A DNA stretch of 17,059 bases from a virus. Its lineage: Duplodnaviria > Heunggongvirae > Uroviricota > Caudoviricetes. The notes beneath the pieces are model-generated. The model did not search any database. It saw only the letters and a list, made by a program, of their open reading frames with translations, and was not told the origin of the DNA. The position numbers and the translations under genes were made by a program. Where the stretch lies: positions 1 to 17,059 of the IMG/VR virus record IMGVR_UViG_2579778535_000004; one strand, given 5' to 3'. Below are positions 308 through 17,059 of this stretch, one piece after another. How positions within the stretch are numbered: the stretch's first letter is position 1; each line of letters opens with the position of its first letter.

Positions 308-649
308 TTACTCCGGATATTTAAAAATTACGTAGGTATGCGAAGGGCAGAGTTTGTTAAGCACACACTCGACAACGGTGTCGCCCCAGATACGCAGTGC
401 GGAATCACAGGGACCGGGTTTATTCAGCGCGTCAATCAGGCGATCGCGCTGGTCAAAGCAGTCATCTCCCACCACATAAGCCGTGATGGACGGGCGGAAA
501 GTGATTTTCCCCAGGTCTTCGGTATAGGGTTTGTCGCGGTTCGGGTATTCGTGCGTTTCCACACGACGACCGGTTCCCGCACTTTCTTCTTCAACCTTAA
601 ACGGCACACCGCGAAATGACGCGTCCTGAAGTCTGTCTTTCCACGTCAT
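308..649 (-). CDS. Mu N-like DNA circularisation protein, N-terminal domain only (truncated, about 113 aa versus about 490 aa in Mu)
   Basis: The track ORF 308..691 contains [19 protein letters not shown]...HEYP, typical of the DNA-circulation N-terminal domain. The likely start is the ATG at 647-649, which has GGAG 6 nt upstream. The stop at 308-310 is followed immediately by the next gene. Confidence 0.5.
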
Positions 650-709
650 ATAAACTCCGTACATAAAAAATCCCACCGGAGTGGGACTCATTAACAGATT
701 AATTTTTCA

Positions 710-2956: not shown

Positions 2957-3312
2957 TACTGGTAATCCCCTTCTTCACCGTGGAACTCAAGATCAACCGT
3001 CCCTTCTTCGGCATTATGGTTTGCTTCGCCGTGCAGCCAGGCAGACGACAGTACATAGACCTGACCGTTCGCCAGCTCGGCTGTGATGGTCATCTCATCA
3101 GACGAGGTGATTTTGCTCACCGGAAAATTCTTCGGCACCTTGAAGGTCCCTTTAACATAAGGCGCACGGTGAGTTTCCTTGCGGTCCACTGAACCGTCCA
3201 GGCCGATGATGTCATCATTGACCGTCCTGTTCATGGGCACCTCAATGCCGCCGGTCAGCGATAGCTGCTGACCGTCAATTTTGAAATAACAGGTTCCCCC
3301 GATACGGGCCAT
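2956..3312 (-). CDS. Tail tube protein (Mu gpM-like)
   Basis: 118-aa ORF placed immediately upstream of the chaperone and tape-measure genes. It has an AGGAG ribosome-binding site, and an upstream reading frame ends TAATG on its start. Confidence 0.65.
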   Translation of the reverse strand: MARIGGTCYFKIDGQQLSLTGGIEVPMNRTVNDDIIGLDGSVDRKETHRAPYVKGTFKVPKNFPVSKITSSDEMTITAELANGQVYVLSSAWLHGEANHNAEEGTVDLEFHGEEGDYQ

Positions 3313-3583
3313 TATGCGGACTCCTCTGAATACTGAAGACGGAACTGGTTAACCACGGCAAAGACACGCAACTGGTTAACATAGTCAGGCGGGAACAGCG
3401 TGTTCAGGCGGTTCGGATCGCTGGCATCACGCTCCACAACCAGGTACTGCTTAAAAAGTTCGTAGTTTTCCACGATCCCCGCACGCTCAAGCTGACGGTA
3501 GCGATGGTGTATTGAGGCTGGCTATCTTCCTTCGCGAAGGATGCAAGGTCTTCAAACTGCTTAGCTGTAAGAACCACTGTCAT
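3313..3583 (-). pseudogene. Gene remnant read in two frames, possibly the 3' end of a tail sheath gene at a deletion junction
   Basis: Minus-strand ATG at 3583 opens a 59-codon frame (MTVVLTAKQFEDLASFAKEDSQPQYT...) that stops at 3404. A second frame, open from about 3521, carries protein-like sequence (...ELFKQYLVVERDASDPNRLNTLFPPDYVNQLRVFAVVNQFRLQYSEESA) and ends TAATG on the tube start, but has no ATG. Confidence 0.3.
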
Positions 3584-3595
3584 ACCTCTGTCGTT

Positions 3596-3619
3596 AAAAA
3601 ACCTCGCTATTGCGAGGTT
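3596..3619 (-). terminator. Intrinsic terminator-like hairpin at the end of the lysis cassette
   Basis: Minus strand reads AACCTCGC-AATA-GCGAGGTT followed by TTTT. The Rz1 stop codon lies in the loop. Confidence 0.45.
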
Positions 3620-3864
3620 CGCGATTGCTCAATCGTTCGGATGTCCGCTTTATCTCTGTTACACTGCCCCAGCGCCAACAACAAGCTGACATTCAAATCC
3701 AAACTGCCTCCATAGGTCAGCGGCTCAGGAATAGCTGGTTGCAGTGTTTCAGTGGTCAGATTCGCCGGTAATGGCACCGCTGGAACTGGCACGTAAACTG
3801 TCCGCGTACTTCCGCAACCGGTCAGCAGCGGCAGCAGGCACAGCACGTGAAGCACAATCATCAT
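3607..3864 (-). CDS. o-spanin (Rz1-like outer-membrane lipoprotein)
   Basis: Alternate frame beginning inside the Rz gene: MMIVLHVLCLLPLLTGC with an LTGC lipobox, then a proline-rich stretch. About 38 codons are embedded in Rz and the frame runs on past the Rz stop. Confidence 0.6.
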   Translation of the reverse strand: MMIVLHVLCLLPLLTGCGSTRTVYVPVPAVPLPANLTTETLQPAIPEPLTYGGSLDLNVSLLLALGQCNRDKADIRTIEQSRTSQ

Positions 3865-4141
3865 CCGCAACAGCCATTTTGATATCTTCCTGGGTTCTCT
3901 GTGACTCCAGTGTGCTCTGCTGTTTTGCATGCTGGTTAGCCTCCAGTACTGTATTGACGATTTGCAGTGATTGCAGGACGTTATTGGTAATGGCAGTTGC
4001 CGATTTGGCATTTTGTACAGCCTCATCAGCACGTTTCTTTTCGTGCTGATATTTGCTGTAGTAGTAGTTGGCTGACCAGATGAAAGAACTGACGACAGTA
4101 AAAAGGAAAGCAGCGATAACCAGCTTATAGCTTAACTTCAT
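3749..4141 (-). CDS. i-spanin (Rz-like)
   Basis: 130-aa ORF with an N-terminal transmembrane helix (LVIAAFLFTVVSSFIW) and a charged, helical remainder. It starts within the 3' end of the endolysin gene. Confidence 0.7.
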   Translation of the reverse strand: MKLSYKLVIAAFLFTVVSSFIWSANYYYSKYQHEKKRADEAVQNAKSATAITNNVLQSLQIVNTVLEANQHAKQQSTLESQRTQEDIKMAVADDDCASRAVPAAAADRLRKYADSLRASSSGAITGESDH

Positions 4142-4601
4142 TTACCACCCCACCAGCCTCTTTAAATCGGGCAATCAGGTCACCGATTTTATGTTCATAC
4201 TGACCGTAACCTGCACCAGGTAACGACGCCCAGATATTGCTGCACCGGTCGATTGCCTGACGGATATCGCCGCGATCAATCATCGGTAAAGCACCTCGCT
4301 CTTTAATCTGCTGCAATGCCACTGCGTCCTGGCTTTTGGGGGAGAAGTCTTTCAGAGCAAGCTGTTTACGGTATGCATCCCACCAACGGGAAAGAAGCTG
4401 GTATCGCCCGGCAGCCGTTGATTTGAGTTTTGGGTTCAGCGTGACAAGTTTGCGAGGATGATCGGAGTAATCAGTGAACAGTTCGCCTCCCACAATAACG
4501 TCATAACCGTGGTTACATGTCGGTTGCCGTCCGTTATCAGTTCCTTCTGACCATGCCACCATATCGAGGAAAGCTTTACGCTGGGAATTTAGTACCTGCA
4601 T
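4125..4601 (-). CDS. R: Endolysin, lambda R-like lytic transglycosylase
   Basis: The 158-aa translation is close to identical to lambda R as I remember it (NSQRKAFLDMVAWSEGTDNGRQ...GYDVIVGGELFTDYSDHPR...DRCSNIWASLPGAGYGQ). Confidence 0.9.
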   Translation of the reverse strand: MQVLNSQRKAFLDMVAWSEGTDNGRQPTCNHGYDVIVGGELFTDYSDHPRKLVTLNPKLKSTAAGRYQLLSRWWDAYRKQLALKDFSPKSQDAVALQQIKERGALPMIDRGDIRQAIDRCSNIWASLPGAGYGQYEHKIGDLIARFKEAGGVVNEVKL

Positions 4602-4604
4602 AAA

Positions 4605-4931
4605 TTACTCCTTAGAGCCACCAAACTTATTACCGATTACTCTCATTGCAGCCCCACGAATAGCATCGACACCGATCAACCCAACGCCACCACCAATGGC
4701 AACAGAAAGCGATTTAGGCCATCCGACATACTCAAGAGCGGATGCAAAAGTCAGCGTCAGAGCGCCACAGAGTAGAATTTCGAGTGTTTTTCGCTTCCAG
4801 CCACCACCACCGCCAAAATAGGCAATGCGCAAACCAGCCATAACAATCGACATAATCACTGCGCCCAGCGGTGTGTCTCCACGCCACCAGCTCTGGACCA
4901 ACTCCAGCCAGGTATTTGGGTTATGAGGCAT
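4605..4931 (-). CDS. Holin
   Basis: 108-aa ORF immediately upstream of the endolysin. It has two to three hydrophobic helices and a charged C-terminus, with GAGGTGAGAG upstream of the ATG. Confidence 0.7.
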   Translation of the reverse strand: MPHNPNTWLELVQSWWRGDTPLGAVIMSIVMAGLRIAYFGGGGGWKRKTLEILLCGALTLTFASALEYVGWPKSLSVAIGGGVGLIGVDAIRGAAMRVIGNKFGGSKE

Positions 4932-5082
4932 TTGTAGTTATCTCTCACCTCGCTGATACAGCAGGTGCAAATTGAGGAAACATCATGTACCGCAAATCAG
5001 AAGCGGAAACGTCAAAGAAGCCGAGTCAATGGATAACTGCGGGATAGACCAGGCCCAACGAATCCCTAGGCCCAGAAACGAC

Positions 5083-5105
5083 AAAACCCGCTCGACGGCG
5101 GGTTT
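5083..5105 (-). terminator. Perfect 8-bp-stem hairpin, possible tR'-like terminator of the late leader
   Basis: AAACCCGC-6 nt loop-GCGGGTTT. On the minus strand the stem is followed by TTTTGTCGTTTCT. It sits between the cassette and the holin. Confidence 0.3.
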
Positions 5106-5151
5106 AAGCTGTGTGGCGAAGTAACCACTCTTAACAGATTACAATGATTTT

Positions 5152-5179
5152 TGCGTACGCGTTAGCATTTTCGTAAAAT
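5152..5179 (+). promoter_or_regulatory. Candidate sigma70 promoter for the nuclease-methyltransferase cassette
   Basis: TTGCGT at 5152-5157, a 16-nt spacer, then TAAAAT at 5174-5179, about 30 nt upstream of the ATG at 5211. Found by eye only. Confidence 0.25.
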
Positions 5180-5210
5180 ACATTACCTTGCAACCATTTC
5201 AGTATAAAAA

Positions 5211-7001
5211 ATGAGCACAGAATTAAAACTAAAGAAAATTATGGCATCGTCTAAAATTGAGCCATTTATTAGACATATTCGTTTTCCTTTTTTTAAAAAC
5301 CTTGCAGAGGGTAGCAAGATTGATTTTGAGTATCCAATTACAGCATTAGTTGGTCAAAACGGAACCAATAAAAGTTCTGTTTTAAGAGCCCTATTCGGTT
5401 CTCCAAACAACTATTCTCTGGGTAGCTTATGGTTTTCTACAGATGTAGATGAGATTAAAGATGGTGGTCGTTCTAGATTTATTTATGGATATTATGACAA
5501 AGCTACTGATTCAATTGTTGAAGTAATTAAAACTCGAATCTCTAAAGAAAATGATCCTGATTACTGGGAACCATCCAGACCATTAAAATCCGACAACATG
5601 GCTCCAATGCCTAGTACAACAATCTCAACCAATCAACTAAGGACTAGGTGGAAAGCTATTGACAAAAATGTAATATATTTAGATTTCAGAGCAACTATCA
5701 GTGCATTTGATAAGTTCTTTTATCACTCTGATTTTCATACATACCCTAAGAAAGATTATCTTAGAAAACGCAGTCAGATGCTAAAAGACATTATAGATAA
5801 CGATCTTAAAAAATATCAACCTCATAAAGGAAAAAAAGACAAGCTATTTGTTAACACTTTATTAGAAAAAAGTAAGGTAGAGGCAATCAGCAAGATTTTA
5901 GGTCGCAAATACACAAGCATCCGCCTTATTGAACATAGCTTATTCACTAATGACAAAGCTCCCACAATTATTCTTCAATCAGAAAACTTAAAATATTCTG
6001 AAGCTTTTGCAGGCAGTGGGGAATTTGCTGTATCTATATTAGTGCATAAACTAATGGATAGCCCTGATGCATCTTTAATTCTGCTAGATGAACCTGAAGT
6101 ATCACTTCACCCTTCTGCTCAATGTCAATTGATGGAATTTTTATCAGAACAAGCACTTAAAAAGAAACATCAAATTGTCATATCCACACATTCATCAACA
6201 ATAGTAAAAGACTTGCCTAAAAATGCCATAAAATTATTCTGTCTGAATGATAAAATAGGAAAGGTTGATGTTCTTCAAAATGTCAGTCCAGAAGAATCTT
6301 TCTTTATTCTTGGTGAACGCATTGATAAAAGAACCGTTATTGTAGAAGATCGGTTAGCGAAGAGGTTTGTAGAAAAGGCGCTTAAAGCGGGTGGTGAAGC
6401 ATTATTAAACTCCTTCGAAGTAAAACATGTTCCTGGAGGAGCGGGAAGTATTCTTCAAACTTTGGCTGTGCCTTTATGTGTTGCCAATGTTAAAAACGTT
6501 ATTTTCTTATTAGATGGTGACCAATCGAGAACTGATGATTATCCAACTTCTGATTCCATACCAGAAAATCAAAACACAAACCTTCAAAACATCATAAAAA
6601 AAATAACCAATCAAGATATAAAATTTAGTTGTGATGGTTCTAATGGCTCATCAAATAACAATCAAAAATACAAAATGCAAAGAAATTTTATCGATTTCAT
6701 CCACGATAAAATTGCTTTTCTTCCTGTTTATACTCCTGAAGCATTTCTTATTGAGAATGTTCATGGTGATTATAAAGAATATAAAGATCAAATCCCCAAA
6801 AACATTCAAGATGCTAAAGAAATCACCAAAGAACTTTGTAAGTTAGACACAGGGTTGGAGAACGTTACCAGTGACGATATCTTTGAAACACAAATCAGAA
6901 TTCTTAATAAAATACCAAATAATCATGAAGTGTTAACAAAAACTCGAGAGTTGCTGCAAATCTTTTTAGATAATGATACTATCAGACCAAGAGTGAGGTA
7001 G
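5211..7001 (+). CDS. Predicted OLD/Gabija-GajA-like nuclease: N-terminal ABC-type ATPase fused to a C-terminal TOPRIM domain
   Basis: 596-aa ORF with a P-loop LVGQNGTNKSS, Walker B ILLDEPEVSLHP, a STHS H-loop-like motif, and a C-terminal TOPRIM pattern (TVIVEDRLAKRF...NVIFLLDGDQS, about 60 aa apart). Hand counts give about 27-30% GC here versus about 45-55% in flanking lines. Confidence 0.65.
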   Translation: MSTELKLKKIMASSKIEPFIRHIRFPFFKNLAEGSKIDFEYPITALVGQNGTNKSSVLRALFGSPNNYSLGSLWFSTDVDEIKDGGRSRFIYGYYDKATDSIVEVIKTRISKENDPDYWEPSRPLKSDNMAPMPSTTISTNQLRTRWKAIDKNVIYLDFRATISAFDKFFYHSDFHTYPKKDYLRKRSQMLKDIIDNDLKKYQPHKGKKDKLFVNTLLEKSKVEAISKILGRKYTSIRLIEHSLFTNDKAPTIILQSENLKYSEAFAGSGEFAVSILVHKLMDSPDASLILLDEPEVSLHPSAQCQLMEFLSEQALKKKHQIVISTHSSTIVKDLPKNAIKLFCLNDKIGKVDVLQNVSPEESFFILGERIDKRTVIVEDRLAKRFVEKALKAGGEALLNSFEVKHVPGGAGSILQTLAVPLCVANVKNVIFLLDGDQSRTDDYPTSDSIPENQNTNLQNIIKKITNQDIKFSCDGSNGSSNNNQKYKMQRNFIDFIHDKIAFLPVYTPEAFLIENVHGDYKEYKDQIPKNIQDAKEITKELCKLDTGLENVTSDDIFETQIRILNKIPNNHEVLTKTRELLQIFLDNDTIRPRVR

Positions 7002-7004
7002 ATA

Positions 7005-8045
7005 ATGGCTAAAAAGATACACGTTTACGATTTCTTTTCCGGCTGCGGCGGAACCAGTGTAGGCCTAAAAGCGGTGGGAATGGAAATTATTTTCGGTTTA
7101 GATATTGATCTAGACTCCGCTAACACCTTTAAAATGAATAATCCATTTGCACATTTTATCAATGGTGATATCAAAGATACACACGTTGAGGAAATTAAGC
7201 ATCTGGTTTGTGCGTCAACACAAAGCAAAGCTCTAACCCTATTTTGTGGTTGTGCTCCATGTCAACCATTCTCGAAACAAAATAAAATACGGAACGAGGA
7301 TGATCCGAGAAAAGATCTGCTTACTGAGTTTGCACGGTTTGTCTCTTATTATACGCCAGACTTTGTACTGGTAGAGAATGTACCAGGAATCCAAAATGTC
7401 GATATTAACAATGGAAATTTCCAGAAATTTCTTGAGATTTTAGCACATCATCACTACAACGTTGATTTTGGTGTGATTCCTGCGTTGTGGTTCGGGGTTC
7501 CTCAAACACGTGAACGTTTTGTTTTACTGGCGTCAAAACACACGAATATTAAGCTTCCATCACAAACTCATGATGGGTTAAAAACTCCGTATGCAACTGT
7601 CAGAGACTGGATCGGCGGATTACCTCCTATTGCTGCCGGTGAAACTCATAAAGATGTTATGGATCATACAGCAGCCAAACTATCTGATCTAAATATTAAA
7701 CGTATTAAAGCGACTCCTGAGGGAAAAGGTAGAGAATCTTGGCCTGAAGAACTTATACTAAAATGCCATAAAAAATATAAAGGGCATACTGATGTTTATG
7801 GACGGCTTTCTTGGGACAAACCAGCAAGTGGATTAACAACTAGATGTATAAGCTATTCGAATGGACGTTTCGGACATCCAGAGCAAGATAGGGCTATTTC
7901 TGTTAGAGAGGCTGCGTTATTACAGACTTTCCCATTAGACTATTCCTTCACAGGCTCTTTAGTCTCGAAAGCCAAACAGATAGGGAATGCAGTCCCTCCC
8001 AAGATGGCTGAAGCTCTTGGAAGGGCTATCATCGCATCACTTTAA
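7005..8045 (+). CDS. DNA (cytosine-5)-methyltransferase
   Basis: Motif I FSGCGG, motif IV GCAPCQPFS with the catalytic Cys, motif VI LVENVPG, motif VIII PQTRERF, motif X QIGNAVPP, in canonical order. The ATG is 4 nt after the upstream stop, so the two genes are probably co-translated. Confidence 0.9.
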   Translation: MAKKIHVYDFFSGCGGTSVGLKAVGMEIIFGLDIDLDSANTFKMNNPFAHFINGDIKDTHVEEIKHLVCASTQSKALTLFCGCAPCQPFSKQNKIRNEDDPRKDLLTEFARFVSYYTPDFVLVENVPGIQNVDINNGNFQKFLEILAHHHYNVDFGVIPALWFGVPQTRERFVLLASKHTNIKLPSQTHDGLKTPYATVRDWIGGLPPIAAGETHKDVMDHTAAKLSDLNIKRIKATPEGKGRESWPEELILKCHKKYKGHTDVYGRLSWDKPASGLTTRCISYSNGRFGHPEQDRAISVREAALLQTFPLDYSFTGSLVSKAKQIGNAVPPKMAEALGRAIIASL

Positions 8046-8055
8046 AAGCGGAGCC

Positions 8056-8412
8056 CTAGAGGGCTTCGCCTAACAATAATAGAATACCTGATATAAACCC
8101 TATAGCTCCCTGAAGCTCTTTTCTAATTGCTCCATCAGAGCATTTTCTTTTCTTAGCAATGGTGCGTAATGAGATACCAATCACAAAATGAGCAATGATC
8201 AGCTCATATTCTTCTGGTTTATACTTCCGCAGGCGGGCGACACAGCCATCAATCATGATGCCTTCATCATCATCACACTGAATCCGGGACTTTCTGCCAT
8301 GAGGTAAAAGCCCCTTGAAGCCAGCGGCTACCGGTTGCCAATCCACACCACTGTTCTCTGCCGCAGCCCACGCTCCCCAACGGTCTAATACTTCATACAT
8401 ATCACACATCAA
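8056..8412 (-). CDS. Late-gene antiterminator Q (Phage_antitermQ family)
   Basis: 118-aa protein with VLDRWGAWAA...AAGFKGL...CDDDEG...C, matching the Q family of several lambdoid prophages as I recall it. It sits between the nin-like genes and the lysis region. Confidence 0.8.
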   Translation of the reverse strand: MMCDMYEVLDRWGAWAAAENSGVDWQPVAAGFKGLLPHGRKSRIQCDDDEGIMIDGCVARLRKYKPEEYELIIAHFVIGISLRTIAKKRKCSDGAIRKELQGAIGFISGILLLLGEAL

Positions 8413-8426
8413 CTTTCTCCACCAAA

Positions 8427-9422
8427 TCAGGCTAGCACACCAATTGCCAACGCACGGTCGATAAAACGAAATATCAGCTCCAGCTGGGAGCCATACTTCT
8501 CTTCAAATGCCACGGTATCCGCATGCAGCTCGTCGTGATGCTTTCTGCACAAAGGCAACACAAAGAGGTCATGCGCTTTTGTACCCATTCCGCCCTGACC
8601 GTGGCCTATCAGGTGGTGGGGATCATCAGCAGGTTTTCCACAACATGCGCACGGCTGCGTCTTAACCCAGCGCGTGTACTTTTCATTAACCCAGCGGTGA
8701 CGTTTTGGGCGTAACATAAAAGACTCCGGCGACTCCGGATCCACTTTCAGCGCCAGCACCTTTTTCGCCTTATCCTGGATGATGCTGGTGGCAGGAACCG
8801 AAGGCACAAGGTCACTTTCCCGGGTAACAGACGGCACAACAGGCTTCGGTAATCTCAGTGCCTTACGGGCTGCACTTTCCGGTAAGGCATCCGCCAGATC
8901 ATTACGAATCAGCCACCAGCACAGTTCCGGCATTGTCACAACATGACTGTCATCAAAACCGAGATCCCGACGCACAACAGACAACACCCAGCGGGCACAG
9001 TTATCCGTTGCCATTGATTCCAGCCGTTCCGTGAACTGATCGCGCAGCTGGTTATCGCAGTGCCAGCACAGACGGATTGCGCCCGGAGCGTGTCGCATTG
9101 TTGTCATGTTCTCGCTGTGCCAGTCGGAATGAGGCCACTGGCAGCCTTTTTCACGAAGTAACCAGCTTTCAAGACATTCCACGCCACCAGCACGACGGAT
9201 CACTGCCTCATTGCGGAACACGGCCAGAACGGCAGGATCATCCGCCAGCGGTTGTGATGCCGCCGGAACAGCACCACTGGCGAAAGATGAATAACGTTCC
9301 GGCTCAGGCTCCAGCAGGACACGCCCCTGCATAAACAGGGGCATCAGCTCTGAACCTGGTCTGAACAATACGATCCCCATACGCGGGGCAATTTCAGGGG
9401 TCAGTAGTGCTCTCACGGTCAC
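8427..9422 (-). CDS. DUF968-family phage protein with an HNH-like zinc-finger C-terminus
   Basis: 331-aa ORF whose C-terminus reads CACCGKPADDPHHLIGHGQGG...LPLCRKHHDELH. Its position next to Q matches the usual placement of DUF968 genes in lambdoid prophages. Confidence 0.7.
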   Translation of the reverse strand: MTVRALLTPEIAPRMGIVLFRPGSELMPLFMQGRVLLEPEPERYSSFASGAVPAASQPLADDPAVLAVFRNEAVIRRAGGVECLESWLLREKGCQWPHSDWHSENMTTMRHAPGAIRLCWHCDNQLRDQFTERLESMATDNCARWVLSVVRRDLGFDDSHVVTMPELCWWLIRNDLADALPESAARKALRLPKPVVPSVTRESDLVPSVPATSIIQDKAKKVLALKVDPESPESFMLRPKRHRWVNEKYTRWVKTQPCACCGKPADDPHHLIGHGQGGMGTKAHDLFVLPLCRKHHDELHADTVAFEEKYGSQLELIFRFIDRALAIGVLA

Positions 9423-9423
9423 C

Positions 9424-10233
9424 TCAATGAACGGTATCGAGCAGCTTTAACAGCTCAGGGAATCGGGATTCGAAGAAATGCGGCTGCGTCTCGCGCGGAT
9501 TTGCGGGACTGGTGATGTTCTTGCCGAACATGCAGCCTTTCGCTGTCAGTGACCAGAATTTTTTGATGTTGTTAATCGCGGTACGGCTGTATCGTTCGCG
9601 CTGCTCGACGATCCCCAGTTTCACCATCTGGTGATATGCCTGATTAGCCGTCAGGCGGATACCATACTGTTTCAGCAGTGCACTCAGTGACAGTGTCGGG
9701 CGACTTGAGCCATCGTGTGCATCAGCAGGAGCATCAATGGCATAGCGCGGTGCCAGATTCGGTAAGCCAACAGCCTCCTGGAGTTTCTGACAGGCACCAA
9801 GCACTGAAGAGTTAGACAGGTTTAACTCCCTGCGCATAAAGTCCAGCAGAATCACTCCAGCCTGCATCTTGTCAGCAGCCTGCCCGGATAATTTTTCCGA
9901 TGCGCTGGTTACCATATCGAAAGTACGGATCACCTTCAGATGGAATGACGGGCTGATCCACATTGCATAGGCATACACCAGTTCTTTGCAGACATACGTC
10001 CCCTGGTTATTTCCGCCATTAATGACGCTAACTGGTTGATTTTGTTCCAGAGGTGGAATTCCACCCTCGGTGAAAAGTTGTTCAATCAATTCACAGGTTT
10101 GCTTATTGGAGAGCCAGTATTTCGGGCGGTTTTTTTGTTCTCCCCCGGCTGCCCTGTGCAGATCGTTCAGGCTGTAACGCCCATAAGCATCACGACGAAC
10201 TTCAATACCATCAATGACCATCAGATTATTCAT
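9424..10233 (-). CDS. KilA-N domain protein (antirepressor-like)
   Basis: The N-terminus MNNLMVIDGIEVRRDAYGRYSLNDLHRAAGG...KYWL is a typical KilA-N domain. The internal ATG at 10231-10233 is preferred over the track start because AGGAG lies about 7 nt upstream. Confidence 0.7.
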   Translation of the reverse strand: MNNLMVIDGIEVRRDAYGRYSLNDLHRAAGGEQKNRPKYWLSNKQTCELIEQLFTEGGIPPLEQNQPVSVINGGNNQGTYVCKELVYAYAMWISPSFHLKVIRTFDMVTSASEKLSGQAADKMQAGVILLDFMRRELNLSNSSVLGACQKLQEAVGLPNLAPRYAIDAPADAHDGSSRPTLSLSALLKQYGIRLTANQAYHQMVKLGIVEQRERYSRTAINNIKKFWSLTAKGCMFGKNITSPANPRETQPHFFESRFPELLKLLDTVH

Positions 10234-10252
10234 ACTTCGTTTCTCCTCTTGA

Positions 10253-10642
10253 TCAGGCGGCTGCACCCGCCGTTTTCTCGTACTTACTGATAGTGATCTC
10301 GACCTTCCCTTCCGGGATAACCGGTCCCCACTCCACCAGCATTCTTTTCACCTGACTGTCGTCTTCCCACACACCCGCGTGGGTCAGGGCGTCAAACAGC
10401 GCCTTGTTATAGTTGTCCAGATCGCGGATCCGGTTATCCGGAGGAAACAACACGATCTCCACTGAAGCAGGTGCCGACGTTGGTTTTGGCAGACGACGTA
10501 ACTGCTCAACTATTGCTGCACACGCCGCGCTCTGGAATTTGCGCCCCGCCGCGCTTATCAGGCTCTTACCTGCAAACGCCCCTTGGTTGGGGTGTCGCCA
10601 GTACGTGTTCACGCTGGGCGGAAAAGGCAGTATTAGCTTCAT
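10253..10642 (-). CDS. rusA: RusA-family Holliday junction resolvase
   Basis: 129-aa protein with LPFPPSVNTYWRH...RDLDNYNKALFDALTHAGVWEDDSQV, the RusA signature. Its start forms an ATGA overlap with the upstream gene. Confidence 0.85.
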   Translation of the reverse strand: MKLILPFPPSVNTYWRHPNQGAFAGKSLISAAGRKFQSAACAAIVEQLRRLPKPTSAPASVEIVLFPPDNRIRDLDNYNKALFDALTHAGVWEDDSQVKRMLVEWGPVIPEGKVEITISKYEKTAGAAA

Positions 10643-10965
10643 ACTTTCAGCTCCCTCTCATGTAACCAGTGGGCTGCACGCAGCCTGGCGTTTTCCTCAC
10701 CGGCAAGCAGTGAGCGGATAATCCCGACCGCCTCGCTGTCGTCGTCCTTCACCGCGGTATGAAGCGTTATCCCCCGGGCCACGCCACGCTTTATCGTGAT
10801 GACGCCTTTTTTCTCCAGTGCGCGAAGATGCTCCACCGCTGCATTCACTGAACGGTATCCCAGCATGGTTGCCACCTCCTGATTGGTTGGCGGAAAGCCA
10901 CGCTCTTTCTGGTAAGAAATCAGCATATCCAGCACCTGCTGCTGGCATTGAGTTAACGTCGTCAT
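10639..10965 (-). CDS. LexA-like N-terminal DNA-binding domain protein with no peptidase domain
   Basis: MTTLTQCQQQVLDMLISYQKERGFPPTNQEVATMLGYRSVNAAVEHLRALEKKGVI parallels the LexA winged-helix domain. The start at 10963-10965 is chosen because it overlaps the upstream stop as TAATG. Confidence 0.6.
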   Translation of the reverse strand: MTTLTQCQQQVLDMLISYQKERGFPPTNQEVATMLGYRSVNAAVEHLRALEKKGVITIKRGVARGITLHTAVKDDDSEAVGIIRSLLAGEENARLRAAHWLHERELKV

Positions 10966-11459
10966 TACGCCCCCACGTAATTCCCTGACAGATACCACTC
11001 ATCACTCGATACAGCGCGCTTGCTGCTTTTCCGTAAACACTGCTCACGACGCGCCAGAAAATTGTTTCGTTCTGGCTGGGAGTGGCTTTCACGGAATGCC
11101 ACCACCCACACCGTTGCAGCACGACGGTATAAGCCCCTGGACTCCAGTTCTTCCGCCTGGCGGGTCAGGCACAAAATCTCCCGCGGGTCGTTAGTGCCGA
11201 CATAGAAATTGCGCACAGGTCTGGTTTCACGAACTGATTGCGGTTCCGCCTCCTGCGCTCTCTCAGTCAGGCGCGGGAAATGTCTGCGTGTATCCCCTTC
11301 ACAACGGTGAGCCACACGACCACTCTGACGTAACTTGCTTGCTGACTGCAGAACGCGCTGCCGTGAGTAACCTGCAAAAGCATCCGCAATGTCTCCGGAA
11401 GTACACCCCGGATGGGCTTCAATGAATTTCTGAACGTCATTCAAAAGACTCATGCTCAC
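10965..11459 (-). CDS. Putative PerC/Pch-like regulator
   Basis: The C-terminal half has RGLYRRAATVWVVAF...ARREQCLRKS, resembling the GLWRRAA-RW motif of PerC-family activators. This is a memory-based call and unverified. Confidence 0.4.
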   Translation of the reverse strand: MSMSLLNDVQKFIEAHPGCTSGDIADAFAGYSRQRVLQSASKLRQSGRVAHRCEGDTRRHFPRLTERAQEAEPQSVRETRPVRNFYVGTNDPREILCLTRQAEELESRGLYRRAATVWVVAFRESHSQPERNNFLARREQCLRKSSKRAVSSDEWYLSGNYVGA

Positions 11460-12397
11460 CCCCTGAATCCTGCCGGGATCTGGCTGTAGTCCACGTTGTC
11501 GTAACTGGCTTTGAAGTACGGGTCTTCGCGTTTTTCGGTGTACGTGCTGACGGACGGCGATAAGCGCAGGGAAAGCTCATCCCATTTTTCCCGCAGCTTC
11601 GACGGGCTGAGCACGTTACGGCACCAGAACGGATCGCGACTGACGCGGCTGTACATCTCGCAGATTTGTTTATGAGTACGACCATCCTGCACACACATCA
11701 GGCGAATTTCGTTTGCCCAGGCTGTCCAGTTCGGTTCTTTGGGACGAACCACCTCGCCGTCACATTCGGCGGCCTGCTCGTACAGGGCGATGATTTTTTT
11801 CCAGAGCCACTGTGCGCAGGTCAAATCATCCTGCGTTCCCCACTGGCGCTTTTTAGGGCTGAATACAACCGCATCAGGATGGCGAGTTAAAAACTCCTGT
11901 TCAGCCGTCTGCGTGTCCGGTTGCGAAGCGTCCGGACGAGAAGTTTTTTTATCTGACGGATCATGTTTTGATTTTACTGACGGATCCCCGCCAGATTCTG
12001 ACGGGTGAAAACCCGCTTTTTTGCCAGATTTCGACGCATCAAATTTTGACGGGTCAGATTTTGATGCGTCAGATTTTGACGGGTCAGAATCTGACAGTTG
12101 AGAAAATGCCGCTGCCTGAAGCTTCGCAACGTTAAGCTGATAAACATTCGACGCATTGCGGTTACCCTGGCGACGCGCCTTACGCGTTAACCAGCCTTCT
12201 GCTTCCAGCCGTGCGATAGCCGTCCTGACGGTACTCATCCCCGCGCCAATCTGACGGGCAATAGTTTCAATTGATGGCCAGCACACACCTTCGTCATTAC
12301 TGAAATCAGCCAGGCGGGCCATAATTGCCACGCTGGATAATTTCATGCCTGATGCAGCGCAACCATCCCATACATAGCCGGTTAATTTAGTGCTCAT
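11456..12397 (-). CDS. Replication initiator-like protein (N-terminal HTH domain, repeat-encoded linker, C-terminal domain)
   Basis: 313-aa ORF with an N-terminal winged-helix region and a central SKSD-type peptide repeat encoded by tandem DNA repeats. It occupies the position of a lambdoid O gene after the cro and CII-like genes. Confidence 0.55.
   Translation of the reverse strand: MSTKLTGYVWDGCAASGMKLSSVAIMARLADFSNDEGVCWPSIETIARQIGAGMSTVRTAIARLEAEGWLTRKARRQGNRNASNVYQLNVAKLQAAAFSQLSDSDPSKSDASKSDPSKFDASKSGKKAGFHPSESGGDPSVKSKHDPSDKKTSRPDASQPDTQTAEQEFLTRHPDAVVFSPKKRQWGTQDDLTCAQWLWKKIIALYEQAAECDGEVVRPKEPNWTAWANEIRLMCVQDGRTHKQICEMYSRVSRDPFWCRNVLSPSKLREKWDELSLRLSPSVSTYTEKREDPYFKASYDNVDYSQIPAGFRG
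11948..12098. repeat. Tandem 15-bp direct repeats (iteron-like) inside the replication initiator gene
   Basis: Five contiguous 15-bp units between 12024 and 12098 (TCAGATTTTGACGGG and variants), plus three degenerate copies back to 11948. They encode the linker of the initiator. Confidence 0.55.
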
Positions 12398-12406
12398 GAC
12401 CGACCT

Positions 12407-12745
12407 CTATTTCCCTGAATTTACGACGAAACTGTTCGAGCGGACTGAAGCACTCATGCTCATAGCCTTCGCGGAGGTAGATAACCCGTTGTGTTTCCGG
12501 TTCCCAACGAATGACTCTGACGGGCACTCCGTAGTGATCTTTGAACCAGCGGTTAACTTGTCGCAAAGGACTGTCTCCTTCTGCCGGTTGAAATCACCCA
12601 CAGCCCACTCTGCAAAGCTGTGGGTTACAATTTCCCTGTCACCTGGTACATTTACTGCATAGCAATACTCCACCTTCGCTTTTCCACCCGGTACAGGAAG
12701 CGCAATCAGTTGCGAGCGACGGTAGTGTGTTGTTAAACTGTTCAT
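12407..12745 (-). CDS. Hypothetical phage protein with an ambiguous 3' reading frame (possible frameshift)
   Basis: The N-terminal half ([53 protein letters not shown]) looks protein-like. The Ser-rich tail of the listed frame looks less so than an alternative frame (12387-12593, ...[56 protein letters not shown]) that ends overlapping the next gene's start. Confidence 0.4.
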
Positions 12746-13305
12746 GCGTTAGTTTCTCCACAGTCACGACACGCCACGGCGCCCGGAGCTGCACACTCGC
12801 GGGCGTCATTACTTTCTGAAATGCAAAAGATTTTGTAGACCAGTGCTGCATGCTCCTGCAGCTTCGAAATTGAGAGATATAGCTCGTCGTTAATTGCTGT
12901 TTTCTCATGCGGTTCCACTACACCGTCTTCGATTGCTGAACGAATCTGTTTTGAATAACTGCCGATCTGTTCAATGACTTCCAGCAGACGCTGGTTAATA
13001 TCGGCGTTGTCCACATCCTCGACGTCAGGAAGAGACACAAATACGCCATTTGCAGACTGCGCCACAGCATCAGCAATGAAGTGAGTGCCACCAGCACGCT
13101 GTAAAACCATTGCCCATCCCAGCGGAAAAATCTGATCGCCATCTGCACGAAGGCGGTTGAATAAAGCGTTCTCTGTTACATCCAGCCAGTCAGCCGCTTC
13201 AGCGTAACCACCCGGCAACGCCGCGATAGTTTTTCTGACAGCTTTCACGTACCACTCAGGCTGTTTTTCTATTTTCCAGTGATGCTTACCCACGATTAGC
13301 CTCAT
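12742..13305 (-). CDS. Putative CII-like regulatory protein
   Basis: 187-aa ORF immediately downstream of the cro-like gene. The family assignment is from weak remembered similarity and position only. Confidence 0.4.
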
Positions 13306-13336
13306 CGTTCTGTGGTTAAAAATTGAAAGTGTTCTG

Positions 13337-13537
13337 CTAATCTTTCGGATAGATATCCGGTCTTAAGTCAGATTTCGTAATTGCACCTGACGTGCATTGC
13401 TCAAGTTTTTTAGCCAGCACAAAACTGGCTTTTTTATAGCCATTGAAAACCAGCCGTAAGTAGCCAGGTGTTGAGCCAACTTTTCCGGCCAACTCGCCCT
13501 GCTGTTCTTTGGTTAAAGAGTCCCAATACGCTTTCAT
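13337..13537 (-). CDS. Cro-like HTH regulator (YdaS-type)
   Basis: MKAYWDSLTKEQQGELAGKVGSTPGYLRLVFNGYKKASF...SDLRPDIYP. GGAGG lies 9 nt upstream of the ATG at 13535-13537. It is divergent from the CI-like gene. Confidence 0.65.
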   Translation of the reverse strand: MKAYWDSLTKEQQGELAGKVGSTPGYLRLVFNGYKKASFVLAKKLEQCTSGAITKSDLRPDIYPKD

Positions 13538-13591
13538 ACAATATGTACCTCCGGTGTACATACTACATGATTAAAATGAACCTTCAAGATA

Positions 13592-13612
13592 CTTGTACCT
13601 TAACGGTACAAG
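13592..13612. promoter_or_regulatory. Palindromic operator in the CI/cro divergent promoter region
   Basis: CTTGTACC-TTAAC-GGTACAAG, with perfect 8-bp arms, overlapping a candidate plus-strand promoter (TTGTAC, 17 nt, TTTAAT) whose start site would fall at the CI ATG. Confidence 0.5.
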
Positions 13613-13627
13613 GGTTTTAATTTCGTT

Positions 13628-14302
13628 ATGAAAACAATCCATGACATCCGGCGGTCTAACGCCAGAAAACTGAGAGATGGTGTAGGCGGGAATTCTTCCT
13701 TTGCCACTATGATTGATCGCGAGCCAACCCAGACCAGCAGGTTTATGGGAGATGGTGCTACTAAAAATATCGGTGACAGCATGGCACGACACATCGAAAA
13801 ATGTTTCGACCTGCCTGTCGGATGGCTCGATCAAGAACACCAGACAACCAACATCACAAAAAAACCTGATGTTTCAATCACTAATAAACAAATCACATTA
13901 GTCCCTGTCATATCATGGGTACAGGCCGGAGCATGGAAAGAAGTTGGATATTCTGAGGTTGATTTGAGCACAGCAGAAACGTATCCCTGCCCTGTACCCT
14001 GTGGGGAAATGACTTATATCTTGCGGGTGATAGGTGATTCAATGATTGATGAGTACCGCCCGGGAGACATGATTTTTGTCGATCCTGAAGTACCTGCCTG
14101 CCACGGTGACGACGTTATTGCATTGATGCACGATACAGGTGAAACCACCTTCAAAAGGTTGATAGAAGATGGGACACAGCGTTATCTCAAAGCGTTAAAC
14201 CCAAACTGGCCTGAGCCTTACATTAAGATCAACGGTAATTGCTCTATAATTGGAACTGTGATTTTCTCAGGAAAACCAAGAAGATACAAAATCAAAGCCT
14301 AA
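13628..14302 (+). CDS. CI-like repressor (HTH plus S24 LexA-type autopeptidase domain)
   Basis: 224-aa ORF with an N-terminal HTH, an Ala-Gly cleavage site (VQAGAWKE), the catalytic Ser in VIGDSM and a Lys in TFKRL. Confidence 0.85.
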   Translation: MKTIHDIRRSNARKLRDGVGGNSSFATMIDREPTQTSRFMGDGATKNIGDSMARHIEKCFDLPVGWLDQEHQTTNITKKPDVSITNKQITLVPVISWVQAGAWKEVGYSEVDLSTAETYPCPVPCGEMTYILRVIGDSMIDEYRPGDMIFVDPEVPACHGDDVIALMHDTGETTFKRLIEDGTQRYLKALNPNWPEPYIKINGNCSIIGTVIFSGKPRRYKIKA

Positions 14303-14314
14303 TCAATGTTTATG

Positions 14315-14337
14315 AACCTGCTTCGGCAGGTTTTTTT
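14315..14337 (+). terminator. Rho-independent terminator after the repressor gene
   Basis: AACCTGC-TTCG-GCAGGTT followed by a run of seven T. Confidence 0.65.
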
Positions 14338-14341
14338 ATAC

Positions 14342-14374
14342 TTGACAATGTACCTTTGAGATACATAATGTATC
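14342..14374 (+). promoter_or_regulatory. pL-like promoter with an overlapping palindrome (candidate operator)
   Basis: TTGACA at 14342-14347, a 16-nt spacer, then CATAAT at 14364-14369. The palindrome GATACAT-A-ATGTATC (14360-14374) covers the -10. Confidence 0.4.
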
Positions 14375-14473
14375 CAAGAGAAACAAAAAACAGGCAGGAC
14401 GCCCACGAAGTAGCCGCCGGTGGCGTATGAATGACCGGATGATTCGTTAAATACTATGTGTAAGAGAGCGCAA

Positions 14474-14677
14474 ATGAACCGTTATTTCACATGCTCGTTT
14501 TGTGGCGCAAACGAGCTGCAGGCAAAAAAAATCATCGCCAAAGGCGGAAAAGATGAAGTTGCTATCTGCTCTGAGTGCGTAGTCTTGTGTGTCGGGGCAT
14601 TAATCAATATCAGCACAACTATTCAGTTCACACCAAATGAGAATGCGCCTTTAGATGCGCGGAAATCTGGAGGTTAA
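14474..14677 (+). CDS. Small zinc-ribbon protein resembling the ClpX N-terminal zinc-binding domain
   Basis: FTCSFCGANELQAKKIIAKGGKDEVAICSECVVLC parallels the ClpX zinc-binding domain (CSFCG ... ICDECV-LC). The start is taken at the internal ATG at 14474, preceded by AGAGAG. Confidence 0.5.
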   Translation: MNRYFTCSFCGANELQAKKIIAKGGKDEVAICSECVVLCVGALINISTTIQFTPNENAPLDARKSGG

Positions 14678-14685
14678 AGAACAAA

Positions 14686-14961
14686 ATGAAAGTCCAGATT
14701 TTAAACAATAGTGGTGAAGTCGTTTGGTCATACGACATAGCCGCTCCTGTAGATCAGAGCGGCGATAGCTGGACCAATGGGAAACATCAGATTATGGCTG
14801 GAGTTGTGTTCTCTTTACGCCGTGCTTTAGAACAGGCTGAAGTCTTTCCATCAGACCCTGAATGGAAATGGCCTTTTTCTATTTGTCCAAATTCGGAGAG
14901 TACATTTCAGAAAATTGGTCAGAAAGTCGCACTCGAAGAGCATCAGCCAACTGTTTCCTGA
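14686..14961 (+). CDS. Hypothetical protein, second gene of the left operon
   Basis: 91-aa ORF with GGAGG about 12 nt upstream. Its 3' end overlaps a convergent ORF by about 83 nt. Confidence 0.45.
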   Translation: MKVQILNNSGEVVWSYDIAAPVDQSGDSWTNGKHQIMAGVVFSLRRALEQAEVFPSDPEWKWPFSICPNSESTFQKIGQKVALEEHQPTVS

Positions 14962-15124
14962 TTTTTTCAGGTAACTCGTCGGCATCGCAGAAACAACAAC
15001 GCTCGATCATGTTGAAAGCCGATTCGTAGAACTGTTTTTGCTGAGTGTCGCTGAGACAGGAAAAGAGCGACGTTACGATGATTTTATTAATTGCATTATC
15101 AAGTTCTTTTTCATCAAAAGTCAT
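14879..15124 (-). CDS. Hypothetical protein, convergent with the left operon
   Basis: 81-aa ORF with AAGGA about 8 nt upstream of the ATG at 15122-15124 and protein-like composition. Confidence 0.45.
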   Translation of the reverse strand: MTFDEKELDNAINKIIVTSLFSCLSDTQQKQFYESAFNMIERCCFCDADELPEKIRKQLADALRVRLSDQFSEMYSPNLDK

Positions 15125-15378
15125 TTGATTTTCCTTTTATGTATACGGGCTTAAAAGGATACCACCGAGCCTGAAGTGGTGAAAAGACAGGCACATAACA
15201 GCTAAGTATTTTCAACCAGAGAGAATCCTTAGCGTTGTGGTGAATGCGGCTCAGCGCACACGGGTTAAGGTTGAGGCTGACAGTCGACCTTCTGTGGATA
15301 CCCACCCGCCTGGTGTGCAACCTTCGCCAGGCACCGGGAGGCACCCGGCACCACAACTTTATGCTGTGTGTAGTCTTA

Positions 15379-15423
15379 GCGGTACCAGCTTGTACCCTTG
15401 CTTCCGGCTGGTACCGTCCTTTT
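15379..15423 (+). terminator. Terminator-like hairpin inside an ORF-poor GC-rich region
   Basis: CGGTACCAGC-17 nt loop-GCTGGTACCG followed by TCCTTTTT. The loop contains CTTGTACC, identical to the operator half-site at 13592-13599. Confidence 0.35.
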
Positions 15424-15637
15424 TACAAAACAGAGAAGAGCATCACCGGACGACGGGCTCATAACCCAATCCATCCGGGCGGCTGCCACCGCAGGTGTTC
15501 TTCTCTGTTTTGTGGAGAAACTAACCGCCCCTACGGGGGCATTTATGGAAATGTAATTGACTCAATAATCGCCGGACGGTGAGGGCTTCCTTTTACCCGA
15601 ATTCAGCGCGGTGCAGCGCATATACGTGGAGAACAAA

Positions 15638-16174
15638 ATGTCATTTATTAAAACTTTTTCCGGGAAGCATTTTTATTATGACAGGATAAATAAAGACGAC
15701 ATCGTTATTAACGATATCGCGGTTTCCCTTTCAAATATCTGTCGCTTTGCAGGACATCTTTCACACTTCTACAGTGTCGCCCAACATGCGGTGCTTTGCA
15801 GCCAGCTGGTGCCACAGGAATTTGCTTTTGAAGCTTTAATGCATGATGCAACAGAAGCATATTGCCAGGACATCCCCGCACCACTGAAACGACTTCTTCC
15901 TGACTATAAACGGATGGAAGAAAAAATAGACGCCGTAATACGTGAGAAATACGGGTTACCTCCTGTTATGAGCACGCCAGTGAAATATGCCGATCTCATT
16001 ATGCTGGCAACCGAACGCCGCGATCTCGGGCTTGATGATGGCTCTTTCTGGCCTGTACTGGAAGGTATCCCGGCAACAGAGATGTTCAAAGTGATTCCAC
16101 AGGTACCGGGCCATGCCTACGGGATGTTTATGGAACGTTTTAACGAGTTATCGGAGTTACGCAAATGCGCATGA
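15638..16174 (+). CDS. HD-domain phosphohydrolase
   Basis: H...HD metal-binding pattern (SVAQHAVLCSQL ... ALMHDATEAY). The start is taken at the ATG at 15638, with GGAGAA 8 nt upstream. Confidence 0.7.
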   Translation: MSFIKTFSGKHFYYDRINKDDIVINDIAVSLSNICRFAGHLSHFYSVAQHAVLCSQLVPQEFAFEALMHDATEAYCQDIPAPLKRLLPDYKRMEEKIDAVIREKYGLPPVMSTPVKYADLIMLATERRDLGLDDGSFWPVLEGIPATEMFKVIPQVPGHAYGMFMERFNELSELRKCA

Positions 16175-16527
16175 ATGTTTTCGAAATGGAAGGGTTTCTT
16201 CGTGGGAGATGTGTACCGCGAGATCTGAAAGTGAATGAAACAGATGCTGAATACCTGGTGCGTAAATTCGATGCGCTTGAAGCTAAATGTGCAGCACAGG
16301 AAAACAAAGTAATACCAGTGTCAACTGAACTGCCACCAGCAAATGAAAGTGTTTTGTTATTCGATGCTAACGGAGAAGGCTGGCTAATTGGCTGGCGTTC
16401 TCTCTGGTACACCTGGGGACAAAAAGAAACCGGAGAATGGCAGTGGACATTTCAGGTCGGGGACCTTGAAAACGTCAATATCACTCACTGGGCAGTAATG
16501 CCAAAAGCACCGGAGGCTGGAGCATAA
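16165..16527 (+). CDS. DUF551-like phage protein
   Basis: 120-aa ORF ending ...GEWQWTF...ITHWAVMPKAPE, reminiscent of DUF551. GGAG lies about 10 nt upstream. Confidence 0.45.
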   Translation: MRMNVFEMEGFLRGRCVPRDLKVNETDAEYLVRKFDALEAKCAAQENKVIPVSTELPPANESVLLFDANGEGWLIGWRSLWYTWGQKETGEWQWTFQVGDLENVNITHWAVMPKAPEAGA

Positions 16528-16832
16528 TGACCACTTTTACCGACAAAGAACTGATTAAAGAAATTAAAGAGCGTATCAGCAGCCTTGACGTGCGAGACGA
16601 TATTGAGCGCCGTGCTTATGAAATCGCACTCCTATCTCTGGAAGTAGAACCAGATGAACGCGAAGCTTATGAATTATTCATGGAAAAGCGTTTCGGTGAC
16701 TTAGTAGATCGTCGGAGAGCAAAAAACGGCGATAACGAATACATGGCATGGGATATGACTCTCGGTTGGATCGTCTGGCAGCAACGAGCAGGTATCCATT
16801 TTTCAACAATGTCACAACAAGAGGTGAAATAA
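16527..16832 (+). CDS. Hypothetical phage protein
   Basis: 101-aa ORF whose ATG overlaps the upstream stop, with GGAGG about 12 nt upstream. Confidence 0.5.
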   Translation: MTTFTDKELIKEIKERISSLDVRDDIERRAYEIALLSLEVEPDEREAYELFMEKRFGDLVDRRRAKNGDNEYMAWDMTLGWIVWQQRAGIHFSTMSQQEVK

Positions 16833-17059
16833 TGGAGCCATACAGCCTCACACTCGATGAGGCCTGTCATTTTCTCAAGATATCCAGACCGACTGCCATT
16901 AACTGGATACGCACAGGGCGTCTTCAGGCAACACGCAAAGATCCCACTAAGAATAAATCTCCTTACCTCACAACACGACAAGCCTGCATTGCGGCTCTTC
17001 AGTCTCCGCTGCATACTGTCCAGGTGAGCGCGGGTGATGGCATAACAGAGGAAAGAAAA
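16832..17059 (+). CDS. xis: Excisionase-like protein, partial (open to the window end)
   Basis: MEPYSLTLDEACHFLKISRPTAINWIRTGRLQATRKDP is the winged-helix excisionase pattern. GAGGTG lies upstream of the ATG at 16832. No stop is reached within the window. Confidence 0.6.
   Translation, partial: MEPYSLTLDEACHFLKISRPTAINWIRTGRLQATRKDPTKNKSPYLTTRQACIAALQSPLHTVQVSAGDGITEERK

Follow-up and report, generated by a model that had tools for sequence, protein, structure and literature searches.

The region past cI in an N-less lambdoid prophage of Escherichia coli: a putative early-left promoter, a conserved leader RNA and a ClpX zinc-binding-domain-like gene

In phage lambda the early-left promoter PL lies just past the repressor gene cI, on the same strand and reading away from it; OR-type operators overlap it, and the operon that it drives ends with xis and int. 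The lambda genes rexAB are small accessory genes that adjoin cI and are co-transcribed with it in the lysogen. Here we describe the interval 14342-15124 of the IMG/VR virus record IMGVR_UViG_2579778535_000004 (Caudoviricetes), of which positions 1 to 17,059 were analyzed as a whole (the window). The interval carries, past the terminator of cI, a promoter with an operator, a 72-nt leader RNA, a gene for a 67-aa protein resembling the zinc-binding domain (ZBD) of ClpX, a gene for a 91-aa protein and a convergent gene for an 81-aa protein. With a probability of about 0.6 for this explanation taken as a whole, we read it as the start of an early-left operon of the PL type, in an N-less lambdoid E. 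coli prophage that resembles SfV and CPS-53.

The position, strand and direction of the promoter, its OR-type operator and the xis-int end of the operon are as at lambda PL/OL, with the difference that lambda has three operators and the window one clear operator. Lambda also has N and nutL; a Q gene is present in the window, an N-like gene was not found in it, boxA/boxB are lacking, and a 72-nt RNA of three helices takes the nutL position, so that the locus is no nut site as defined by boxA/boxB together with N. To our knowledge, early-left read-through of terminators in N-less lambdoid phages is known only for the HK022-type put RNAs. Like HK022 putL, the leader described here is a cis RNA some 70 nt long, starts a few bases past the PL start in an N-less lambdoid phage and is indifferent to the gene that follows. 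The put RNAs are built of two long stem-loops (PMC9378689), whereas this leader consists of a closing helix with two inner hairpins, has no copy at PR and is assigned a function by analogy.

Host AAA+ proteases are blunted by several small phage proteins, namely FtsH by lambda cIII and Lon by T4 PinA and T7 Gp4.5. Among the proteins under ClpXP control are lambda O, MuA, ssrA-tagged proteins and, by way of RssB, RpoS. The 67-aa protein would resemble cIII, PinA and Gp4.5 as a small early phage protein shielding unstable phage regulators from a host protease; it would differ from them in acting by domain mimicry, and no such factor for ClpXP was found in the literature searched.

Promoter and operator past cI

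The features of the interval and its borders are as follows, in window coordinates.

14314-14333, plus strand: intrinsic terminator of cI, an 8-bp stem GAACCTGC/GCAGGTTT followed by T7
14342-14369, plus strand: putative PL-type early-left promoter, TTGACA-16-CATAAT, 11 of 12 consensus matches
14349-14365: putative OL-type operator TGTACCTTTGAGATACA, between -35 and -10 inside the promoter spacer
14383-14454, plus strand: structured leader RNA between promoter and first gene, covariance model (CM) score 81 bits, E 8e-27
14474-14677, plus strand: 67-aa free-standing ClpX-ZBD-like zinc ribbon, PF06689, PHROG 5259 (function unknown)
14686-14961, plus strand: 91-aa protein of the SfV orf33 family, PHROG 3195 (function unknown), phrog_3195 E 8e-64
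14879-15124, minus strand: 81-aa convergent protein, PHROG 3311 (function unknown), phrog_3311 E 3e-55
15125-15190, minus strand: 5' leader of the 81-aa gene, hairpin CCAC...GUGG, then helix UCCUUUUA/UAAAAGGA

The chromosome of E. coli strain VE-T9 contains positions 14300-15200 of the window (901 bases) with 100% identity. Shigella phage SfV matches the window in blocks of 94.5-98% identity, the exception being one 74-base block with 82%. In both VE-T9 and SfV the genes that follow the interval on the same strand are yfdR and yfdT, then excisionase and integrase.

The promoter is the top match within the 2.5-kb region scanned. Sites of the pattern TGTAC-N7-GTACA with at most one mismatch number three in the 17 kb, against 0.23 expected by chance; two of them, at 13544 and 13594, lie between cI and cro, and the third lies in the 14342 promoter. 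A perfect palindrome (GATACAT-A-ATGTATC) is present at 14360-14374 and an inverted repeat, I1, at 14349-14366 and 14368-14385; a second, weaker operator site may be located at 14369-14385. In every immunity type examined a strong sigma-70-type promoter is found 5-20 nt 5' of the leader RNA. The promoter and its inverted repeats vary with the immunity type, and the 72 nt 3' of the promoter are constant. Across 48 IMG/VR loci with a ZBD gene, its module stands behind at least four different cI/cro types.

Since an operator of the cI-cro type lies over the promoter core, the promoter is best read as a PL/OL analogue that should be repressed in the lysogen. Sequence and layout place it as such in that it lies beyond cI on the cI strand, bears an OR-type operator and heads an operon running toward xis-int. 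The 67-aa and 91-aa genes are expected to be early-left genes, silent in the lysogen and made upon induction or infection.

An earlier note on this stretch had reported that the cI terminator is directly followed by a near-consensus promoter with an overlapping palindrome, and had listed an open reading frame (ORF) of 67 aa with four cysteines, one of 91 aa and a convergent one of 81 aa that overlaps the 3' end of the operon. All of these are present, the overlap being one of 83 nt, tail-to-tail, with the 91-aa gene. The same note took the genes for a rexAB-like module, expressed in the lysogen and excluding superinfecting phages or modulating the host, and such a module would indeed adjoin cI and have a separate promoter; slots of this kind often hold morons, and the 81-aa gene, like the BssS-like genes found at that slot in Salmonella relatives, could be expressed in the lysogen. 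We nevertheless consider the proposal improbable. RexAB are transcribed together with cI, whereas the genes in the window lie past the cI terminator behind a promoter with a cI-type operator within its core; this promoter is in PL position and co-varies with the immunity type, the genes lie on the strand that continues to xis-int, and each of the 67-, 91- and 81-aa proteins matched zero PADLOC families at E <= 0.01. The locus is thereby re-read as one of predicted induction-time genes and not of lysogen exclusion genes, which changes the experiments that make sense.

The conserved 72-nt leader RNA

The leader is the most conserved element of the interval, although it escaped the earlier note. 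Its parts, all on the plus strand, are the following.

14385-14390 with 14443-14448: P1, 6-bp closing helix
14393-14395 (GGC) with 14401-14403 (GCC): P1a, small hairpin
Core: near-invariant CCCACGAAGUAGC
14417-14421 with 14434-14438: P2, 5-bp helix
P2 loop: GGCGUAUGAAUG in the window, GGCRUAYGAA in the alignment
3' junction: AUGA in the window, (A/G)UGA in the alignment

The fold was derived from an alignment of 44 distinct copies, in which 95% of the cells are paired and 11 of the 14 pairs show compensatory changes. None of 500 shuffles reached the observed values, slid partners paired in 22-43%, and RNAalifold independently gave the identical fold. The covariance model detects one copy in the window (81 bits; next best 9.7); a second copy behind PR was sought in the window with the model and not found. 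A pseudoknot between UAGCC and the GGC of the P2 loop and a sarcin-ricin-like AGUA/GAA pairing were considered, and variation in the core is too low to judge either. A mini-ORF in the leader, starting at the AUG of GGAUGA, was dropped because this AUG is AUA or GUG in some members.

Over a 58-nt stretch of the leader (14389-14446), ST64B, mEp460 and other phages show 97-98% identity to the window, and phages of Yersinia, Pectobacterium, Klebsiella and Aeromonas as well as T5-like Providencia phages show 82-92%. The copies always lie just 3' of a promoter, beginning 5-20 nt past the transcription start predicted from each -10 box, independently of the following gene. A pattern scan with one genome per species gave full-length matches of 68-92 bits in 61 of the first 100 species-representative loci that it yielded. 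Many genera of the Enterobacterales account for 59 of the 61; the other two full-score matches come from assemblies labelled Pseudomonas lundensis (comparison locus L248) and Chryseobacterium sp. (L226) and could represent contamination or real transfer. When the scan was anchored on the 3' half of the leader, the exact 14-mer core was kept in 90 of 119 matches, most of the others differing by single changes; conservation of the core is therefore not a product of selecting for the core.

Rfam contains no match for the leader, neither at the gathering cut-off nor at E <= 10, a literature search with the leader sequence string returned nothing relevant, and the papers on SfIV and mEpimmI do not describe it. 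The leader is far more widespread than the HK022-type put RNAs, shows clear covariation and is absent from Rfam, and as an uncatalogued RNA it is the more novel object of the interval, the ZBD gene being a further member of a catalogued domain family and already named as such by the Prokaryotic Genome Annotation Pipeline (PGAP).

By analogy with HK022 putL, which has the same position, the leader may be a cis-acting element that modifies the elongation complex, a tentative assignment to which we give clearly less than even odds. It would act in cis on the transcribing polymerase, by antitermination or anti-pausing, and would thereby carry PL transcription through the terminators at 15379-15430 and 15430-15512, the phage having Q and no N. 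Within 200 nt 3' of the leader, a hairpin and the rrn-type boxA GCTCTTTAACAA occur in 9 of 105 distinct contexts, where about 0.5 occurrences of the boxA are expected (about 18-fold over chance). In the boxA-bearing siblings (L119, L066, L122, L125, L171 and others) cI and the promoter are the same and the hairpin and boxA stand in place of the block of ZBD and 91-aa genes; in the T5-like Providencia phage PSTCR5 (L054:1555-1600) the leader is followed by CGCTCTTTAA. A second conserved RNA-like module, GCGCAGCAGG ... ACGTTCCGC, then a variable hairpin and AAGGGCA, is found in 35 further contexts, about a third (L057:1565-1640, L165, L099, L105 and others); it usually lies 3' of the leader and in two contexts (L074, L118) 5' of it.

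Alternatively, the leader might not be an antiterminator and might serve as a 5' stability element, as a riboswitch-like sensor of a ligand or protein, or as the 5' part of an early small RNA. We regard this as doubtful, though possible. Its lack of put or nut similarity and of a second copy at PR would agree with such a role; the variable distance to the first ORF and the differing next gene fit a general element at the mRNA level, and roughly 25 unpaired nucleotides that hardly vary point to a specific binding partner. However, no conserved expression platform follows P1, a simple stabilizer hairpin would need no invariant core, and the enrichment of the adjacent rrn-type boxA and the terminators downstream speak against such a role. 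The barriers in question are these.

15204-15430, plus strand: STnc100-like RNA with intrinsic terminator, RF02076, 40.2 bits, E 2e-7
15430-15508, plus strand: long hairpin followed by UUUUG, -41.3 kcal/mol, z -3.9, equalled by none of 200 shuffles

The first scores below the gathering cut-off of RF02076 (40.2 against 47) and yet aligns over the full model (15204-15426), with the UGGUGAAU and CACCGGGAGGCACCCGGCACCA blocks and the terminal terminator as in STnc100, which suggests that it is a relative of this RNA. Its terminator has a 12-bp stem (15379-15417) followed by UCCUUUUU, with -20.9 kcal/mol and z -3.0. The long hairpin, with a 15-bp closing stem, forms a second barrier before yfdR (15611). 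An extra GCCCC/GGGGC hairpin is present at 15527-15540, several barriers thus being stacked between the cargo genes and yfdR. PGAP calls a 'frameshifted hypothetical protein' over 15204-15430, which is probably a misread structured RNA. The STnc100-like segment appears to exist in ST64B too, as seen from one shared peptide stretch in the ORF translation; a search of ST64B, SfV and related loci gave no STnc100 match at the gathering cut-off.

The ClpX zinc-binding-domain-like protein and its neighbors

The 67-aa ORF is preceded by the Shine-Dalgarno sequence AAGAGAG, five nt 5' of it, and PGAP annotates the same 67-aa start under the name 'ClpX C4-type zinc finger protein'. The protein has cysteines at C7, C10, C32 and C35 (CxxC...CxxC). 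The earlier note had recognized the cysteine pattern of the ClpX ZBD, and the protein is by sequence and predicted fold a true homologue of this domain: Pfam zf-C4_ClpX (PF06689) matches with E 1.4e-10 and 41.3 bits against a curated cut-off of 27, and the top phmmer matches in the PDB are the isolated E. coli ClpX ZBD (2ds5/1ovx) and full-length ClpX. The structural similarity for which that note had called is likewise present in an AlphaFold2 (AF2) model, which superposes on 2DS5/2DS6/2DS8 with a root-mean-square deviation (rmsd) of 1.5-1.7 Å over 41-45 residues, 36-39% identity, target-normalized TM-scores of 0.78-0.81 and a probability of 1.0. Five of the top six Foldseek matches are crystal chains of the isolated E. 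coli ClpX ZBD; the sixth is 9a5x_A, a full-length ClpX-ClpP integrative model (rmsd 5.0 Å), and no other fold comes near the ClpX ZBD. Of the interpretation offered in the earlier note, then, the ClpX ZBD structure stands, and its rex-like exclusion setting does not.

Like the ClpX ZBD, the protein is a C-x2-C...C-x2-C zinc ribbon followed by a helix; unlike it, the protein is free-standing, phage-encoded and located at the start of an early operon. It was rejected as a ClpX orthologue: the AAA+ module (about 360 residues) is missing, and the NCBIfam clpX equivalogs require 359-371 bits, of which it reaches 22-26. It retains the motifs CSFCG and ICxEC, including the Phe of CSFC, which is half of the ClpX F16/I46 patch. 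The C-terminal 25 residues form a tail that is predicted to be disordered and varies among relatives. An exhaustive profile search for the ZBD returned 154 cluster representatives at E <= 0.001, nearly all of them not true ClpX but 60-300 aa long and built with one to four repeats of the ZBD type; similar small ZBD proteins occur in Pseudomonas and Bacillus phages. Such free-standing copies occur commonly, we know of none with a known function, and a search of the literature on phage ClpX-ZBD proteins or ClpXP inhibitors found nothing relevant.

All three ORFs of the interval are under purifying selection. Their frames are kept in diverged relatives, with a nonsynonymous divergence (dN) of 0.19-0.33 and a synonymous divergence (dS) that is saturated in most comparisons; the three dN/dS ratios that could be computed across them are 0.20-0.44. 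For the 67-aa gene, comparison with Salmonella relatives (66-74% identity) gives dN 0.19-0.26, with dS saturated in both comparisons with the window copy; the two relatives compared with each other give dS 0.68 and dN/dS 0.36. The 67-aa ORF is a real gene. The 91-aa and 81-aa genes show dN 0.2-0.3 with saturated dS, and a dN/dS of 0.20 was obtained for the 91-aa gene.

The ZBD gene is rare, optional cargo behind the leader. Among about 115 distinct viral leader contexts, five (about 4%) have a ZBD ORF and nine the 91-aa gene. ZBD homologues of 60-75% identity are always the first gene 3' of the leader and are followed by a convergent small gene of varying family (e.g. BssS-like); 91-aa homologues of 57-71% identity take this first position in Rac-like and other prophages. 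In SfV, where the 91-aa gene is orf33, leader and 91-aa gene are both present and 45 bp stand in place of the 235-bp ZBD segment of the window; ST64B has the leader with no ORF for 600 nt after it. The 91-aa gene occurs without the ZBD gene in SfV and Rac-like prophages, the ZBD gene without the 91-aa gene in Salmonella relatives. The 67-aa protein therefore does not depend on the 91-aa protein, which the earlier note had called its partner, and the leader depends on neither.

In ClpX the ZBD is a dimerization domain and adaptor hub without which lambda O and MuA are not degraded; its F16/I46 patch is the binding surface for lambda O, SspB, RssB and trigger factor (PMC7804408). With substrates and adaptors depending on this domain, a free copy could titrate these ligands or pair with the ZBD of ClpX; the homology together with the kept Phe of the patch makes interference with N-domain-dependent recognition by ClpX a reasonable hypothesis. 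Judging only by homology and position, the ZBD copy probably competes with the ClpX N-domain. Upon induction, loss of cI would open the 14342 promoter, and the transcript would begin with the leader RNA and encode the ZBD copy first. The ZBD-like protein would then serve to decoy or poison the N-domain of host ClpX, either titrating N-domain-dependent substrates or adaptor tails or heterodimerizing with the ZBD of ClpX itself; N-domain-dependent ClpXP proteolysis would be blunted early in lytic growth and phage or host proteins would be spared. A phage early ZBD gene offers a clean test of domain mimicry against ClpXP.

Two other roles for the 67-aa protein appear unlikely. As a zinc-ribbon regulator it would bind nucleic acid or RNA polymerase and not target ClpX, possibly working with the leader RNA from the N slot or acting like the Ogr/Delta-type zinc-finger activators. 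The ZBD gene is always first after the leader, the position of N, zinc ribbons are common among proteins that bind nucleic acid or RNA polymerase, and there is a weak Elf1-type match (E 0.069); about 96% of the distinct leader contexts, including SfV and ST64B, nevertheless have no ZBD gene, the ClpX ZBD is the only significant match in sequence and in fold, and an arginine-rich motif is absent. As a hijacker of ClpXP, through ZBD dimerization or as an adaptor, it would direct the protease to repressor fragments or to a host defense protein. The dimerizing and adaptor-docking functions of the ClpX ZBD (PMC7804408) would permit this, and the variable, predicted-disordered tail is what a tethering tail would look like, but that tail is not conserved among relatives, no evidence points to a partner, and nothing separates a hijacker from a decoy.

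Taken jointly, the two parts yield a bolder proposal that we hold as possible and speculative: the leader would represent a new class of cis RNA that reprograms E. coli RNA polymerase where early-left operons begin. It would correspond in function to HK022 put, or would replace N/nut without a protein, and would be used by N-less lambdoid prophages across the Enterobacterales and by some T5-like phages; its ZBD cargo would be the first phage ClpX-domain mimic that disarms ClpXP proteolysis of the N-domain-dependent kind.

Several points weigh against the early-left operon reading or its parts. The 14342 promoter has a single strong operator, and repression by cI and expression of the promoter are read from sequence and position alone. 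No boxA was found in the window at 14300-15700. The leader is unlike HK022 put in sequence and architecture, its covariance model finding no match in the HK022 locus; it is present as a single copy with none behind PR, and own promoters of downstream genes could make antitermination unnecessary. In the window copy P1 pairs AAAAAA with UUCGUU, with two internal mismatches, and may be weakened, whereas P1 is fully paired in nearly all other copies (ACGAAC, GUCAUC or ACCACC types). The AF2 model of the 67-aa protein is of moderate confidence, with a predicted local distance difference test (pLDDT) score of 64 overall and about 75 over residues 1-49. The equivalent of ClpX I46 is Ala42, followed by Leu43, and the beta-hairpin has a 3-residue insertion, so that the binding specificity may differ; zinc binding and contact with ClpX or its substrates are predictions from homology and modelling.

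The Shine-Dalgarno sequence of the 91-aa gene (GGAGG) sits within the end of the ZBD ORF. In some loci (L019, L021, L026, L028; about 3201-3841) a 628-bp insertion separates the ZBD and 91-aa genes. The 91-aa and 81-aa proteins gave no match in Pfam, NCBIfam or PADLOC, and the AF2 model of the 91-aa protein (pLDDT 44) was unusable for structure search. PGAP leaves the 81-aa gene unannotated; L179 and L182/L183 retain its ORF, with 61-67% identity, and diverged copies of the 91-aa/81-aa pair retain both frames and the tail-to-tail overlap. The helix UCCUUUUA/UAAAAGGA in the 5' leader of the 81-aa gene is predicted to be able to sequester its Shine-Dalgarno sequence and becomes UCCUUCU/AGAAGGA, a compensatory change, in L182. 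About 60 nt 5' of the start are nearly invariant and more conserved than the synonymously saturated coding sequence, which suggests that the 81-aa gene is under translational control by its leader. It is a better candidate for expression in the lysogen than the two plus-strand genes. In Salmonella and other relatives the convergent slot opposite the first early-left gene is occupied by unrelated small genes on the minus strand (BssS-like, 138-aa and 74-aa; L354:2767-3018, L355:2802-3218, L353:2724-2948), and this position looks like a general moron slot.

The surrounding prophage

The remainder of the window has the layout of a lambdoid prophage, as listed here.

Tail and lysis genes
8056-8412, minus strand: Q
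Between Q and cro: DUF968, KilA-N, RusA, PerC, replication protein (313 aa) and CII-like gene
13337-13561, minus strand: cro
13628-14302, plus strand: cI (ymfK-type, S24 repressor; Peptidase_S24 E 1.5e-26)
3' of the interval: yfdR (15611), DUF551 protein, yfdT and, in the parent genome VE-T9, excisionase and integrase

The PR operons of SfV (L001:3898-4086, minus strand), ST64B (L002:240-428, minus strand) and sal3 (L003:240-428, minus strand) carry C4 antisense RNA and isrK, both exceeding their Rfam cut-offs; the window gave no C4/isrK match, that segment being absent. Between the lysis genes and Q a pair of genes is inserted at 5211-8045 on the plus strand. One product is an OLD/Gabija/PtuA-type AAA ATPase of 596 aa, which matches PADLOC HEC-04 with 123 bits; the other matches PF00145 (E 8e-59) as a C5 cytosine methyltransferase. 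The pair is likely a prophage-borne defense or restriction-modification-like moron.

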